Source of the DNA: a virus
Lineage: Duplodnaviria > Heunggongvirae > Uroviricota > Caudoviricetes
Direction: 5' to 3' (one strand)
Length of the DNA: 14,514 nt
IMG/VR virus record: IMGVR_UViG_2660238462_000002
The position numbers and the translations under genes were made by a program. Below, in pieces: positions 1,641-10,746 of this stretch. The notes under the pieces are model-generated. The model was not told the origin of the DNA. It saw only the letters and a list, made by a program, of their open reading frames with translations, and searched no databases. Each line of letters opens with the position of its first letter. The stretch's first letter is position 1.

Positions 1641-4112
1641 TTAAGAATCAGCCTGACTCGGGATCAGTTTTTGCCAGATAACTGAAACGTATTTTGCCTG
1701 GTAACGGGCGTCATCAAGTGCATTATGGCGCTCACCTTCGAATGGAATAGCCGTTCTGGCATCGAAGTCTATGGCTTTCCCCAGCTCAACGATTGTGCGT
1801 ACATCGCGATCGTTGTAGTAACGCCACGGGCAGGGGATCCCCTGCCGTTCGTATGAACGGCGCAAAATCGTGTTGTCGAAGTTGGCTCCATTTCCCCAGA
1901 CCTGAACAAAAAATTCACCGGAGTTTTCGTCGATAAATTCCCACAATTGTAACAGTGCATCATCTAACGGGATTTCATCGGTCATAATGGCAGATTGCGC
2001 TTCGCGTGATTGCTTAAGCCACCATTTAATGGTGTCCCGATCAATGACTCCGCCAGCAGTTTCCAGATCGATAGTCTTACTAAATTCCGGTCCCATATCT
2101 CCGGTTTGCGGATCGAAAAATATTGCACCTATTGAGATGATCGGGGCATCAGGATTTTTTCCCATGGTTTCAAGGTCGATCATTAGATGGTCACACGTCC
2201 TGCTGGTGGATGTGATTTCTTGATGACCGTTCACCTTAATTGAGTGATCTGCCGTCTCGCCAGTTTCATTATCGCTATCGTGATGCTGATTGCCGCCAGT
2301 GTTCTCCTTGTGTGGATGTTCAGCGCCTTCCATTTCCTCCGGATCATCTTCCTGAACTTCAATCTGATACTCTTCATCGAATGTTTCCTGGTATGTTGCG
2401 TCGCCCATTACCGCGCCACAATCAGGGCAGTTGCCGCCGCCGGTCTGACCGCAGGCGGTGCAGACTTTTTCCACTTCCTGTTGCGCCACTGATTCAGGCT
2501 GTTTCGTTTCTGGCTCGTTTTGTAACGCATTTGGGCTGTTTTGTTCCGCTTTTTGGTAGTTCCGTTCCGATTCATGCTGGTTCTGGTTCACAGAATCGCG
2601 GGTCTGGATCCCCTTAACCCATTTCGGATCATTCGGGTCACTAATCCCTTCAACAAATTCACCACGTGATGCAGCAAGCAACTTATCGGCGTCAGGCTGG
2701 ATGATATTGGCTGCCTGCATAATTTTGTTTACTTCGTCAGCGGTAACTTTTATCGGCTCTGGTTGTTCTGAATCTTCAGCGGTATCTACATTTTGCGGTA
2801 AGCCCGTGTATGTGCCATTTTTTCGGGCAAAATATTCTTCTTTTGTGATTTCAGTGGCGCCAGCAGCCAGTGCCTTATCCAGACCAGAAAGTTTGTTTGC
2901 GCGACCGTATTTTTCTCCGTCCTTATCTGCGAAGAGGAAATAGAACGGCCCCTCACGCTCTACAGATGGTTCAGCTTCCGGCGCGGTTTCATTTTTTGGG
3001 ATATCAGATACCTCAGTTTCCACTGCATCAGTTTGTGTTTCTGATGACTGGAGAACATCAACAGTGCCCAGGTCTGTTTCTTCATTCTCAAACACGCCCT
3101 TTGTCGTCAGGTATTCGCAGATATATTTGTTCAGTGCTACGGGATCTTTGTGAATGTCGATCGGACGCTCACGGACAAGGCCAAAAATAGTTTGGCGGTC
3201 GTAGCGAAGGGCATCAGGCTGTTTGCGCATTGATGCCGAGATACGCTTCCAGTCTTCGCGGTCGTTGTCGATAACTTCATTTTTTGCCCAGCGATGGATG
3301 CTGCCGTCAATGTTTCCGGCATCCACATCACCAGGCCAGAGAGCGTAGGCCAGTTCGTCATCCAGTGTTTTCCATGTCTGCTTGTATTCGCGATGAATGG
3401 CAGCAATGACCGGGCTGATTTTTCCTGTTGAATTTTCAGTGTACTGTTGATTGGCTCTGGCGCGGGCGAGATCAACAACAGACGTGTATTTTCCGGTTTC
3501 CTTGCGTTCACCTTCGCGACGTTTTTTCCAGATGCGCATCTCTGCCTGAATTTCGGGCCATTTAGCACCAGGAATACATTTATGCTTAACCCACCCAATG
3601 GCGTGCAACTTAAGCTCCGGATACATGGCGTTAACTTCTGGCATTTTCATCAACGCTTCAACGATATGTCCGTCGAATGTTGCCATGTCTTCCTGCAACA
3701 ATTCCTGTGCGCTAATAACCATATCAACGGTGATGTTTTCACATGTGTCGAACTTAACCATGACAGCGTTCTGTACTTCAGGGGCCAGCTTGTCAAAAGT
3801 GACGTTCATCGGATCGGATTCAGTCTCAACCGGGACAAAAGAAGCAGACTCCTCATCCCAGCGGTTTTCCTGCATATATTCAGCATCCCATGAATCGAGG
3901 GCAGGGCGGGGTATGCCAGGTTTATCCTCGCAGACAATAAATTTATAAGCGCAGTCCTGAGCAGCCGGATAATGTTCCAGGAATTGCCAGTGAAATTTTG
4001 CTCGAGCACGGCGTTCGTCGCCAGCTTCAATGGCTGTGGCTACAGCCACAGCGCCTTCTTCCCTTGTTGCCAGTTCGTCAGGAATAGCGGCGCAAATAAA
4101 GACTTTACTCAT
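1641..4112 (-). CDS. Large prophage exonuclease-like protein (823 aa) with C-terminal DEDDh 3'-5' exonuclease domain; of the kind often annotated exodeoxyribonuclease VIII
   Basis: C-terminal motifs HLMIDLETMG (Exo I), VWGNGANFDNTIL (Exo II) and HNALDDARY (Exo III). Central CTACGQ...CPDCG zinc-ribbon motif flanked by highly acidic low-complexity sequence. Start chosen at ATG 4112 (MSKVF...) because GAGG lies 9 nt upstream; the ORF track start at 4148 has no ribosome-binding site. Confidence 0.8.
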   Translation of the reverse strand: MSKVFICAAIPDELATREEGAVAVATAIEAGDERRARAKFHWQFLEHYPAAQDCAYKFIVCEDKPGIPRPALDSWDAEYMQENRWDEESASFVPVETESDPMNVTFDKLAPEVQNAVMVKFDTCENITVDMVISAQELLQEDMATFDGHIVEALMKMPEVNAMYPELKLHAIGWVKHKCIPGAKWPEIQAEMRIWKKRREGERKETGKYTSVVDLARARANQQYTENSTGKISPVIAAIHREYKQTWKTLDDELAYALWPGDVDAGNIDGSIHRWAKNEVIDNDREDWKRISASMRKQPDALRYDRQTIFGLVRERPIDIHKDPVALNKYICEYLTTKGVFENEETDLGTVDVLQSSETQTDAVETEVSDIPKNETAPEAEPSVEREGPFYFLFADKDGEKYGRANKLSGLDKALAAGATEITKEEYFARKNGTYTGLPQNVDTAEDSEQPEPIKVTADEVNKIMQAANIIQPDADKLLAASRGEFVEGISDPNDPKWVKGIQTRDSVNQNQHESERNYQKAEQNSPNALQNEPETKQPESVAQQEVEKVCTACGQTGGGNCPDCGAVMGDATYQETFDEEYQIEVQEDDPEEMEGAEHPHKENTGGNQHHDSDNETGETADHSIKVNGHQEITSTSRTCDHLMIDLETMGKNPDAPIISIGAIFFDPQTGDMGPEFSKTIDLETAGGVIDRDTIKWWLKQSREAQSAIMTDEIPLDDALLQLWEFIDENSGEFFVQVWGNGANFDNTILRRSYERQGIPCPWRYYNDRDVRTIVELGKAIDFDARTAIPFEGERHNALDDARYQAKYVSVIWQKLIPSQADS

Positions 4113-4755: not shown

Positions 4756-4808
4756 GGGCGGCAGAGCAGTCACGGAGTAAAACTGATACCGCCAAACGTC
4801 ACCAGAAA
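4756..4808 (-). ncRNA. dicF: DicF-like small regulatory RNA (about 53 nt) with intrinsic terminator hairpin and U-tract
   Basis: Minus-strand sequence TTTCTGGTGACGTTTGGCGGTATCAGTTTTACTCCGTGACTGCTCTGCCGCCC followed by TTTTT matches recalled DicF. The 3' hairpin GGGCGGCAGAGCAG/CTGCTCTGCCGCCC is followed by the U-run at plus 4751-4755. Context is between ydfC-like and dicB-like genes, as in Qin. Confidence 0.7.
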
Positions 4809-5148
4809 ATTGATAACAGAGGGCGTTGCAGCGGGGTTGTCACTTAAGCGTATGGTCAACCTGACAACCCGGTGTCCTCAACGGGGAAGAAATAACCCCG
4901 CCATACTTACCGCCGCACCATTTCGCGGGTTGCCACAACCGGAAGCGCACGGTCGACGAAAATTTAACGACAGGCTATCTATGAACCAGCTACCTCGCCG
5001 TGCGCTTTCGCGTTATGGTCTGACTTTTCAGGGAAATATCCTTTCAGTAAACTGTCAGTGCCGGATGCTCACCCGTGTCCGGCGCACGCACTCCACCTCA
5101 CCCGTGGAGAACTCCTTAATTACCAACCTTAGCTTCGTTGGTTAGCTA

Positions 5149-8539: not shown

Positions 8540-8962
8540 GTGGCAAAAGTTTTTACACAAGAAGAGCGAGAAAAAATTAAAGGGCAGGTTGTTGAACTCG
8601 TACGCCAGAGTGGGCGTGAGACGTTACGGCAACTGGAAGTCAAGACAGGTGCGACAAGATATCTGATGAGCGTTCTCGCAAGAGAGCTGGTTGCCAGCGG
8701 CGATGTATACAACTCCGGCTACGGGTTATTCCCCTCTGAACAGGCGCGTAAGGACTGGCAAAACGCCCGCAAAAAACTCTCGAGGGCAAAGGTGAAGAAA
8801 CCTGCTGTGGTTGATCCGGACCTTATCTGGTCATCACCTGACGGAGAAATACGTCGCTACGACAGTCGCCTAAACATAATCTGTCGCGAGTGCCGGAAGA
8901 GTGAAGCTATGCAGCGTGTACTGGCTTTCTATCAGGGTAATTTTCAGGAGGCGGTACTGTGA
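8540..8962 (+). CDS. Hypothetical protein (140 aa), GTG start
   Basis: AGGAGG 4 nt upstream of GTG 8540. No recognisable motif beyond a C-terminal CRECRK. Stop abuts the next ORF. Confidence 0.55.
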   Translation: MAKVFTQEEREKIKGQVVELVRQSGRETLRQLEVKTGATRYLMSVLARELVASGDVYNSGYGLFPSEQARKDWQNARKKLSRAKVKKPAVVDPDLIWSSPDGEIRRYDSRLNIICRECRKSEAMQRVLAFYQGNFQEAVL

Positions 8963-9019
8963 GTGAAATTAGCTATCAGGCTTCAATTACCGCTGGCATT
9001 CGCATCAAAGGAGAGGAGC

Positions 9020-9376
9020 ATGGAAATAAAACCAGAGGATGAGTTAAGCAATATCGTTTTATTTCCGGTAAAAGAGGATGACCCTCGTAATCAGGTTAAT
9101 TTTCTTTATGAGCCATCGGAAAGACCATATTGTCATCACGCCTCTGTCCGGGTTGACGAAAAAGAGCGTCAGGTCCGCTGTAAAATCTGCGGTGCAGTTG
9201 TGGAGCCATTTGACTGGATGCTCTCTGTGGCGAAAAGAGAAACCAGACTGGCAGATGATGTAAGGCTCTTGCGTCAGGAGGAGCGGGAAAGGCGAAAAAA
9301 TATAGAAAAGCTAATTCAGATTGAGCGTAACGCGAAAGCGCGGATACGCAGGGCGACAAAATCCAGAACTGAATAA
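9020..9376 (+). CDS. Hypothetical zinc-ribbon protein (118 aa; 137 aa if the GTG at 8963 is used)
   Basis: GGAGAGGAG SD 5-7 nt upstream of ATG 9020. Motif YCHH...(13)...CKIC followed by a basic, coiled-coil-like tail (RLLRQEERERRKNIEKLIQIERNAKARIRR). Confidence 0.55.
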   Translation: MEIKPEDELSNIVLFPVKEDDPRNQVNFLYEPSERPYCHHASVRVDEKERQVRCKICGAVVEPFDWMLSVAKRETRLADDVRLLRQEERERRKNIEKLIQIERNAKARIRRATKSRTE

Positions 9377-9469
9377 TTAAATTTAGCTCTGTTAAAAATT
9401 TAATCCTTAACCGGAGGGATTTCTGCACCCTCAGAACATCAGGAGGCCGCCCGAAAGGGCGGTAGTTAA

Positions 9470-9652
9470 ATGCGAAAGTTTAAAATAATTATTGAAACGG
9501 GAATAGCCGGTGGAGATTTCGAGGATGAATTCGAAGTGGATGATGATGCGACGCCTGATGAAATACATGACGAAGCAAAAGATATTTTCTTTAACTACTG
9601 CAATTACTCATATCACGAAATAAAAGACGAAGAGGAAGAACAAAATGGCTGA
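9470..9652 (+). CDS. Small highly acidic protein (60 aa, about 20 Asp/Glu against 5 Lys/Arg)
   Basis: ORF in an AT-rich segment; AGGAGG at 9441-9446 is separated from the ATG by a GC hairpin (9447-9462). Net charge about -15. Confidence 0.5.
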   Translation: MRKFKIIIETGIAGGDFEDEFEVDDDATPDEIHDEAKDIFFNYCNYSYHEIKDEEEEQNG

Positions 9653-9821
9653 TTTTGGTTCAACTAAATACAACGTCAGTTTTGAAGAATGGCATGAACT
9701 GTTAATGGACTATGCAGAGTTACGTGGTGGCAGTGCTGCTGATGCTGAAGCATGGCGTGATGATTATGAAGCAGGAAAAACTCCGGTCGAAGCATATTGT
9801 GATGAGTGGGGCGATGAATGA
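9645..9821 (+). CDS. Small acidic protein (58 aa), overlapping the upstream gene (ATGGCTGA)
   Basis: Hand-translated: MADFGSTKYNVSFEEWHELLMDYAELRGGSAADAEAWRDDYEAGKTPVEAYCDEWGDE. About 16 acidic against 4 basic residues. Start overlaps the stop of the 60-aa gene and its stop overlaps the next ATG (ATGA). Confidence 0.5.
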   Translation: MADFGSTKYNVSFEEWHELLMDYAELRGGSAADAEAWRDDYEAGKTPVEAYCDEWGDE

Positions 9822-10075
9822 GCGAGGTTAATTATCAGGAAGGGCATGAAACGGCGGGGCAAGCAAAAACAGTGGCATGGCGATATCGCTACGTGAAAAA
9901 AAAGGCGTTACGGACTTTCAGGGGAAGTAGTGGTCTGGTGACTGGAAATATGTACCGAAAAAAGAGGATTGTAACGACAGGCCGAACTATGAAATTCAGG
10001 CCTTATTCACTGCCCCGCCAGTCCCGGTTACATCAGAAGAACTGGTTAAAGCTGTGCACTTTTATGAACAACTAA
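9818..10075 (+). pseudogene. Possible disrupted or frameshift-dependent ORF; the protein-like C-terminal part is in the -1 frame, ending at 10134
   Basis: The frame from ATG 9818 looks protein-like at first, then turns basic and low-complexity. The -1 frame from 9930 to 10134 reads as good protein (WSGDWKYVPKKEDCNDRPNYEIQALFTAPPVPVTSEELVKAVHFYEQLKRENPPASGNLITDSQIRQ) but has no start codon. Two A_AAA_AAG heptamers lie in the 0 frame at 9898-9904 and 9958-9964. Confidence 0.3.
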
Positions 10076-10304
10076 AACGCGAAAATCCACCAGCATCCGG
10101 AAACCTGATTACAGATTCCCAGATAAGGCAATGAGCTACCTGGCGCAGAACGGGCTGATAAGTATGGGGAATGTTTTACGATGAATATTTAGACTAAAGA
10201 GTTTGTAACGCTATGTAAGTGATTTTTTCTGGTTTAGATATTTATATGTCCGGCCAAATTGAGGTGTGTTTAAATGTAATTGCACATTGATTGTAGGAGG
10301 AATA

Positions 10305-10484
10305 ATGAAAAACGCATTGCAGTTTTTGTTTGTTGCGTTCTGGTTGTTCGTATCATGTATGCCCATCATCTTCACAGCAAGGTATATGGAAAAAGTTGAT
10401 GTTTTGATATTAATATTTGGATATATAAATGCCCTTTTTTTAGGGGTGTTCATGGCGGTCATGTGCATTGAATACTGGCGGTAA
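10305..10484 (+). CDS. Small hydrophobic membrane protein (59 aa, two predicted transmembrane segments) in an AT-rich cassette
   Basis: AGGAGG 4 nt upstream of ATG 10305. Sequence MKNALQFLFVAFWLFVSCMPIIF...ILIFGYINALFLGVFMAVMCI. Local composition is much more AT-rich than its surroundings. Confidence 0.5.
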   Translation: MKNALQFLFVAFWLFVSCMPIIFTARYMEKVDVLILIFGYINALFLGVFMAVMCIEYWR

Positions 10485-10686
10485 ATACAGCGAACGCCAT
10501 TGGTTTAGTTGGATATTTACTGTGCCGGACAAAAACGGTTTGCGGGGAAATCTTAGTTAAGTAGAATGACTGCGGGTGCTTGAGGCTATCTGTCTCAGGC
10601 ATGAACACCAAAAGGCAGATAGAGAAAAGCCCCAGTTAACATTACGCGTCCTGCAAGACGCTTAACATTAATCTGAGGCCATATCT

Positions 10687-10746
10687 ATGCGACACATAGA
10701 GATTAGCCTCTTACGGACCGAAAGGTCAAGGAGAAGCAGGCTATGA
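10687..10746 (+). CDS. Short leader ORF (19 codons) ending at the hok start codon; possible mok-like coupling ORF
   Basis: ATG 10687 with GAGG 9 nt upstream; its TGA stop overlaps the hok ATG (ATGA). Canonical mok is longer and overlaps hok, so this is tentative. Confidence 0.3.
   Translation: MRHIEISLLRTERSRRSRL

Follow-up and report, generated by a model that had tools for sequence, protein, structure and literature searches.

A portable leader with a putative hairpin-split ribosome-binding site ahead of two acidic mini-protein genes in a lambdoid Escherichia coli prophage

The split translation-initiation regions (TIRs) of genes 38 and 25 of bacteriophage T4 were reportedly described by Nivinskas et al. 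in 1999 and by Malys and Nivinskas in 2009. In these two proven cases, a hairpin shortens the distance between the Shine–Dalgarno (SD) sequence and the start codon from 22 to 5 nt and from 27 to 11 nt, respectively (PMC3014915). Among small acidic phage proteins, T7 gp5.9 and lambda Gam are DNA mimics that inhibit RecBCD (PMC9836394), gp5.9 inhibiting MukBEF as well (PMC7617805). Here, we compare with these systems a locus in a 14,514-nt stretch of Caudoviricetes DNA (IMG/VR record IMGVR_UViG_2660238462_000002; the whole stretch is referred to below as the window), where an SD, a hairpin and two overlapping open reading frames (ORFs) for strongly acidic proteins of 60 and 58 amino acids (aa), ORF60 and ORF58, follow one another on the + strand. 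The overall explanation that we find best, and advance tentatively as approaching an even chance, is a lineage-specific two-gene accessory cassette in a nin-like operon, placed behind a portable split-SD leader and encoding acidic binders that act singly.

The SD, the hairpin, the ATG, both acidic ORFs and their overlap all lie where an initial annotation, made by reading the sequence, had placed them. The SD (AGGAGG, 9441–9446, +) is nearly invariant across copies of the element and lies 23 nt 5′ of the ORF60 ATG at 9470, which directly follows an in-frame TAA (9467–9469). Between SD and start codon stands the string CCGCCC-GAAA-GGGCGG (9447–9462, +), six G–C pairs with a GAAA tetraloop, to which RNAfold adds a G9446–U9463 pair (hairpin II, 9446..9463, +). 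The 40-nt context of this hairpin is predicted to fold at −15.9 kcal/mol (z = −2.7), a value equalled by none of 200 shuffles, and the minimum-free-energy structure leaves the AGGAGG single-stranded. The 22-nt SD-plus-hairpin string occurs a single time in the window and in none of 200 shuffles. ORF60 (9470–9652, +) and ORF58 (9645–9821, +) overlap by 8 nt (ATGGCTGA, 9645–9652), and the SD of ORF58 (GAGGA, 9632–9636, +), 8 nt 5′ of its ATG at 9645, falls within the codons for the Glu-rich acidic tail of ORF60.

The likeness to T4 genes 38 and 25 is close. At all three loci the SD is too far from the AUG (23 nt here), a stable hairpin lies between them, and its folding restores the spacing (here it would do so, to about 6–7 nt); at all three, too, the arrangement is kept in close relatives and absent from distant ones. 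Differences concern the surroundings: the leader studied here stands before various genes, is flanked by stops in several frames and includes a second stem-loop. A split TIR is the reading of the AGGAGG-hairpin unit that comparison supports best.

The leader as a whole is an intergenic cassette of 101 nt (9369–9469, +), composed of a three-frame stop, an AT-rich spacer, stem-loop I, the SD and the GNRA hairpin. Its 5′ edge, TGAATAATTAA (9370..9380, +), holds stops in all three frames, with the TAA at 9374–9376 ending the upstream Zn-ribbon gene. The spacer (9381..9412, +) ends in an invariant AATCCTTAACC, and in alignment A5, with 53 distinct copies, no variation is seen in columns that the search anchor did not cover. 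Stem-loop I (9414..9432, +) is a predicted fold of GAGGG, a 9-nt loop and CCCTC, with an SD-like GGAGG as its 5′ arm; in two loci (L082 and L246) the arms are kept and the loop is replaced. In complete E. coli genomes the 101-nt element was found at 5,005 places in 2,687 of 5,426 genomes, with up to nine per genome, and further copies lie at L003 7007–7103, L248 1501–1591 and L107 2479–2546.

Our scan for the leader in viral sequences was anchored on stem-loop I, so that the sample of hairpin II should stay unbiased, and recovered at least 120 viral contigs. Among these, the leader precedes at least six unrelated gene families, including DUF7167 (the family of ORF60), Ea22/DUF551-like proteins (MTELTKEQ...), DUF4014, a 158-aa protein (MQEIKENI...), Q-antiterminator-like proteins and others. 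On the other side, upstream homology starts exactly at TGAATAATTAA, behind at least six different upstream genes. Among the matches listed, the distance from stem to ATG is 6–11 nt in all variants, whichever gene follows. Stx phages of the ArgO145 type provide an example of a divided leader: a 70-aa gene is inserted within the cassette and uses its first GGAGG as SD, the minimal unit CAGGAGG-hairpin-TAGTTAA-ATG stays attached to ORF60, and a full copy of the cassette stands 1 kb downstream, before DUF4014. Divergent DUF7167 genes of other genera have ordinary SDs or TGATG coupling and no hairpin, so that the arrangement goes with the lambdoid leader and not with the protein family. The structure-dependent translation suggested by the initial annotation consequently fares well in one respect and not in another: SD, hairpin and spacer are kept before at least six unrelated genes with 96% pairing in the stem, but the arrangement is not specific to ORF60 and ORF58. 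In loci L171 and L141, where the leader is followed by GGTGGAGATAATAATG, the Q-antiterminator-like gene has a second, conventional GGAG between hairpin and ATG, and may therefore not depend on a split SD. The leader has no match in Rfam 15 at gathering score; the best in 9300–9900 has E = 1.8 and a score far below the family threshold.

Variation among the 53 distinct copies is compatible with a hairpin formed in RNA. Paired positions make up 96.2% of 369 stem cells, and most of the variation consists of C-to-U changes on the 5′ arm (26 U–G cells), which leave only the + strand RNA able to pair and disrupt the palindrome in the DNA; a compensatory change from C–G to A–U is present in one copy. 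All six pairs are intact in nine of 14 variant hairpins. Several points weigh against a hairpin that enhances translation. The other five variant hairpins have one or two mismatches; covariation is not significant (63 of 500 shuffles attain the observed score), the element being too uniform; and the 3′ arm GGGCGGU is itself SD-like at ideal spacing, so that the hairpin could repress, and not enhance, translation.

This last possibility, in which ribosomes would bind at GGGCGGU and the hairpin would be a repressor, is the main rival to a split TIR. It belongs to a broader alternative that we consider rather doubtful, according to which the hairpin is no enhancer and either occludes the weak SD GGGCGGU, acts as an element of mRNA stability or processing, or matters only as DNA, as a patch of recombination homology. 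GGGCGGU does lie 6–7 nt before the ATG and would be sequestered in the stem, covariation is statistically weak, and mosaic junctions lie at both ends of the cassette, where the genes upstream and downstream differ from copy to copy; in Stx phages an inserted gene divides the cassette, much as with the PeSL cassettes of T4 (PMC2839356). However, the nearly invariant AGGAGG always stands directly 5′ of the stem, with a constant 6–11 nt from stem to ATG whatever the gene, and the C-to-U bias of the 5′ arm preserves RNA pairing at the expense of the DNA palindrome. A stem of 6–7 bp is also too short for RNase III. There is likewise no U-tract, the mark of an intrinsic terminator, 3′ of the stem, which is followed by AGUUAAAUG. 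A role as recombination patch would be compatible with either a translational role or repression.

The comparison with PeSL cassettes of T4-type phages (PMC2839356, PMC4122927) can be taken further. Both are short intergenic stem-loop motifs repeated within and between genomes, both flank small variable ORFs, and in both cases mosaic junctions fall at the motif. PeSL cassettes differ in combining an early promoter with a terminator-like stem-loop; the cassette described here resides in temperate lambdoid phages and holds translational signals instead. Neither a terminator-like site nor a sigma-70-like promoter was predicted on the + strand in a scan of 8900–10500, and the readings of the hairpin as a terminator (lambda tR2-like) or a promoter were dropped.

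We then consider the two products. ORF60 contains 20 Asp and Glu against 5 Lys and Arg residues (net charge −15, pI 4.05) and ORF58 has a net charge of −12 (pI 4.05), in agreement with the approximate −15 and −12 of the initial annotation. ORF60 belongs to Pfam family DUF7167 (PF23768; 55.1 bits at a gathering threshold of 24.4 bits, E = 7.9e−15, residues 2–53 on positions 1–60 of the 60-position model) and matches phrog_1997 over its full length (E = 9e−31); PGAP names an identical protein 'DUF7167 family protein'. ORF58 has no Pfam family and matches phrog_519 (PHROG 519; E = 4.5e−23, profile positions 76–137 of 143). DUF7167, PHROG 1997 and PHROG 519 are already catalogued families to which no function is assigned. 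Compared with divergent E. coli alleles, dN/dS is mostly 0.02–0.2 for both ORFs (about 0.05 for ORF60), and both families reach other genera, which therefore identifies ORF60 and ORF58, at the level of sequence evolution, as real genes under strong purifying selection. E. coli assemblies often carry DUF7167 alleles that are frameshifted or truncated (P0064, P0066, P0048, P0056, P0068), one 46-aa form being present on 107 contigs; such alleles fit a decay of the gene in some cryptic prophages, although intact copies are under purifying selection.

AlphaFold2 (AF2) monomer models predict, with confidence, a β-hairpin followed by a helix and a floppy acidic tail for ORF60 (pLDDT 89.8), and a three-helix bundle for ORF58 (pLDDT 88.5) with a conserved aromatic core of F13, W16, W37, Y41 and P47. 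An exhaustive HMMER search for ORF58 gave 65 representative relatives, nearly all stand-alone proteins of 50–65 aa, in which F13, W16, W37, Y41, G44 and P47 are nearly invariant (alignment A1); 198 phage records contain a relative, among them those of Ackermannviridae such as CBA120. The long proteins P0169 and P0182, with 5–7 'matches' to ORF58 each, were discarded as compositional matches to β-rich cell-surface repeats. Relatives of DUF7167 were found in Klebsiella, Citrobacter, Serratia, Yersinia and Pseudomonas and, at ~42% identity, in Enterococcus phages of roughly 140 kb. The first viral scan had matched ORF60-identical proteins only, and the divergent DUF7167 loci were reached via divergent queries; a scan of genome contigs gave four loci. 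The most distant relatives of the two proteins share about 38–45% identity. Every sampled member of both families has a negative net charge, the medians being −12 in DUF7167 (n = 45) and −10 in the ORF58 family (n = 32), with no positive member, and strong negative charge is kept down to about 40% identity, which marks it in these samples as a conserved family trait. Loss of the acidic character in orthologues, which the initial annotation had named as evidence against its proposal, therefore does not occur.

That proposal was DNA mimicry serving anti-defence, and it is a reasonable hypothesis for which both the acidity and the early accessory context speak. In its strict form, as mimicry directed against restriction or BREX-type defences, we judge it very unlikely. 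The charges of the two proteins, their pI of 4.05 and the conservation of acidity across both families favour it, as does a size and pI matching those of T7 gp5.9, a proven mimic (modelled residues 1–49, pI 4.0); mimic folds are moreover very diverse, hence a missing fold match does not amount to exclusion (PMC9836394), and both are accessory genes for which early expression is expected. Nevertheless, compact globular monomers of 58–60 aa would cover less than one turn of DNA, no neighbourhood examined shows linkage to restriction-modification or defence, and searches of both proteins in Pfam, PADLOC and the PDB gave no match to Ocr, ArdA, Gam, gp5.9, Arn or any anti-CRISPR mimic. Neither protein had a match in NCBIfam or PADLOC, sequence and profile searches of PDB chains gave nothing meaningful, and BFVD returned only uncharacterised phage proteins; nothing specific was found in the literature on DUF7167, the hairpin sequence or lambdoid acidic anti-defence proteins.

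As mimics are structurally diverse and gp5.9 is equally small and acidic, these searches neither support nor exclude a functional analogy. With gp5.9 and Gam the two proteins share a very small size, a pI of about 4, a presumably dense Asp/Glu surface and early phage genes; they differ in lacking sequence or fold similarity, the folds predicted for the monomers (β-hairpin plus helix and three-helix bundle) contrasting with a helical dimer or coiled coil. With T7 Ocr and ArdA (PMC3439906) they have in common a strong net negative charge and an early expression (expected here) from a phage or mobile element, but no sequence or fold homology.

A further parallel with gp5.9 and Gam lies in the genomic neighbourhoods, since DUF7167 relatives often adjoin a phage exonuclease gene, as T7 gene 5.9 and lambda gam do. 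In Klebsiella Guernseyvirinae, DUF7167 overlaps, and lies upstream of, a gene for a 454-aa PD-(D/E)XK exonuclease, and in Enterococcus Herelleviridae it overlaps, and lies downstream of, a 180-aa exonuclease gene (DUF7167–exonuclease loci L228 3001–4525, L230 3001–4525, L229 2471–3171 and L104/L105 about 3001–3600). In P22-like and Serratia prophages, it is located between recombination genes (Arf, ERF, SSB, Dam, Rv2179c-like exonuclease) and xis-int. These arrangements raise the alternative that DUF7167 acts like Gam or gp5.9 and inhibits a host nuclease of DNA ends, for instance RecBCD, so as to protect phage DNA ends and favour the phage's own recombinase, and that ORF58 is functionally unrelated. 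Overlapping or abutting exonuclease genes in two unrelated virulent groups, and also in L104 and L105, the temperate examples among ERF/SSB/Dam or Rv2179c-like exonuclease genes, and the small size and acidity that ORF60 shares with gp5.9 all argue for it. We still see it as distinctly improbable: the gene is kilobases from recombination genes both in the window and in ArgO145, adjacency may merely reflect a shared early-region location, and the predicted fold of ORF60 is not a helical dimer.

ORF60 and ORF58 belong to two unrelated families that, in the sequences compared, stand side by side with an 8-nt overlap in E. coli-type phages alone. They are adjacent in all 154 loci holding close E. 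coli-type alleles of both, a relative of ORF58 is a neighbour in none of 30 loci with divergent DUF7167 genes, and the ORF58 genes of Enterobacter have no DUF7167 neighbour; elsewhere each family stands by itself, among the early accessory genes of temperate as well as virulent phages. The idea that the two proteins are an obligate pair or complex was rejected on the grounds that co-occurrence is limited to one lineage, and both being strongly negative also argues against a mutual complex. One natural in-frame deletion (L120 494–603, minus strand) has lost almost all of ORF60, giving the product MRKFRKNK-MADFGSTKYN..., and places ORF58 directly behind the leader. In Escherichia phages EP_H11 and vB_EcoM_IME392, of roughly 110 kb, an ORF58-like domain in addition continues, in frame, the C-terminal end of a NADAR domain (PF08719, E = 7e−27; L250 2506–3162). 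NADAR enzymes reverse DNA ADP-ribosylation. The fusion is rare (2 of 646 phage records with NADAR-like matches) and may indicate a link to DNA modification or counter-defence, or merely a stop codon lost between neighbouring genes.

In the window, the pair occupies the nin-like region, and in Stx2a phages such as ArgO145 it is found in the exo-xis region, followed by an Ea22-like gene; the two genes are thus shown as a pair mobile between two early operons. ORF58 relatives of Enterobacter prophages similarly lie 3′ of Ead/Ea22 genes. Genes of the exo-xis region reportedly show very early expression and shift lysogenisation and induction (PMC3824215, PMC7093339, PMC8614690), and this location near Ead/Ea22-like genes in ArgO145 and Enterobacter prophages suggests that the proteins might modulate phage development (lysis–lysogeny or induction) via host transcription, replication or cell-cycle proteins and not via defences. 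The two proteins resemble the lambda/Stx exo-xis proteins (Orf60a, Orf61, Orf63, Ea8.5, Ea22; PMC8614690) in their niche in ArgO145, a length of ~60 aa, an expected early expression and functions that are largely unassigned. They are not homologous, however, and both families also occur in strictly virulent phages. Neither protein has homology to lambda orf60a (DUF1317), orf61, orf63 (DUF1382) or ea8.5; a relationship to the first three was rejected on the grounds of different Pfam families and of a tblastn search of the lambda genome whose best match (E 0.016) fell outside exo-xis. Many members of the ORF58 family come from strictly virulent Ackermannviridae, and the Guernseyvirinae and Herelleviridae with DUF7167 are likewise virulent and have no lysogeny decision to make. 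Modulation of phage development is, for these reasons, quite unlikely in our view.

The neighbourhoods of both families are places where phages keep host-takeover and counter-defence genes, and the explanation that we prefer, an accessory cassette behind a portable split-SD leader, combines them with the features of the leader. The hairpin would loop out 16–18 nt and bring the strong SD within about 6–7 nt of the AUG, and such a split TIR, like those of T4 genes 38 and 25, would provide context-independent translation for any gene behind the cassette; ORF58 would be translated by coupling and from its own GAGGA. Each acidic protein, acting alone, is probably a stoichiometric binder or inhibitor of a basic nucleic-acid-binding surface on a protein of the host or of a rival phage, and would so serve host takeover or counter-defence, with a DNA-end or recombination-linked target as the best guess for DUF7167. 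Two further facts pull the other way: many small early phage proteins are acidic, so that charge alone is weak evidence, and in the window neither gene adjoins a nuclease or defence-related gene.

A bolder, joint version would make the locus an undescribed self-insulating junction cassette combined with two founding families of mini DNA-mimic or counter-defence inhibitors. The cassette would stop translation in three frames and restart it via the hairpin-bridged split SD, acting both as a plug-and-play expression signal and as a homology patch that shuffles accessory genes between the pL and pR early operons; DUF7167 would be directed against a DNA-end nuclease such as RecBCD, and the PHROG 519 domain against a DNA-modifying or DNA-binding defence, as hinted by the NADAR fusion. 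Taken together, this is a long shot.

The cassette is present in roughly one third to half of complete E. coli genomes, including those with Stx-converting phages. If the shared leader works as proposed, it would constitute a second natural class of hairpin-bridged split ribosome-binding sites, after that of T4, and it could be a ready-made insulating expression part; it also points to sites of module exchange in lambdoid phages. Conserved acidity and occurrence in temperate and virulent phages make the two families well-defined and cheap candidates for screens of anti-defence and host-takeover functions. Current understanding is not overturned by these observations, which add members and a variant.

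The window itself is a Rac/Qin-type lambdoid prophage of E. coli, as follows from the annotated gene order: int, xis, a RecE-like exonuclease, dicB/ydfD, cI, cro/dicC, cII/YdaT, O, DUF977, Zn-ribbon, ORF60 and ORF58, followed 3′ by hok/sok, DUF968, rusA and Q. Rfam matches to the DicF sRNA (4756–4807, −; 76.7 bits) and to the sok antisense RNA of the hok/sok module (10574–10745, +; 106.7 bits) confirm its Qin-like character. Around the locus, 451 bases match induced E. coli prophages (vB_EcoS-640R1 and others) at 100% identity, and the same holds for many E. coli chromosomes. ORF60 and ORF58 share the strand of O and Q and form part of the delayed-early (nin-like) region of the rightward operon. 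The genes directly upstream encode a DUF977 protein (8540–8962; PHROG 142, 'Ren-like exclusion protein') and the Zn-ribbon protein (8963–9376; PHROG 1621, with a weak TFIIB-type Zn-ribbon match), which therefore puts the cassette at the place of lambda ren, tR2 and ninB.

The initial annotation had also described the segment as AT-rich relative to its flanks, and this is borne out: GC content is 0.417 in 9441–9821 (0.37 in ORF60, 0.44 in ORF58), compared with ~0.456 in the two flanks and 0.480 in the whole window, so the AT-richness is real but modest.

ORF85 (9818–10075, +) follows as the third member of a translationally coupled array, with an ATGA overlap with ORF58. Its relatives are proteins named ead/Ea22-like by PGAP and RefSeq, at the same position in related phages. 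Homology changes reading frame after a run of eight A residues (9895–9902), with a further stretch in another frame that contains a stop, and PGAP labels an identical locus 'frameshifted; internal stop'; judged from these alignments, ORF85 is a frameshifted remnant or pseudogene and not an intact gene. Over the corresponding region (9818–10130), intact relatives, for example in L110, read ...AWRYRYVKKGVMDSQGELWVGDWKYVPKKEDCNDRPNYEIQ.... Finally, the cassette occurs at 96% DNA identity to E. coli prophages in record PP818812.1, labelled 'Actinobacillus phage vB_Apl-pPE4'; the host is surprising, and the record may represent an E. coli-derived phage or be mislabelled.

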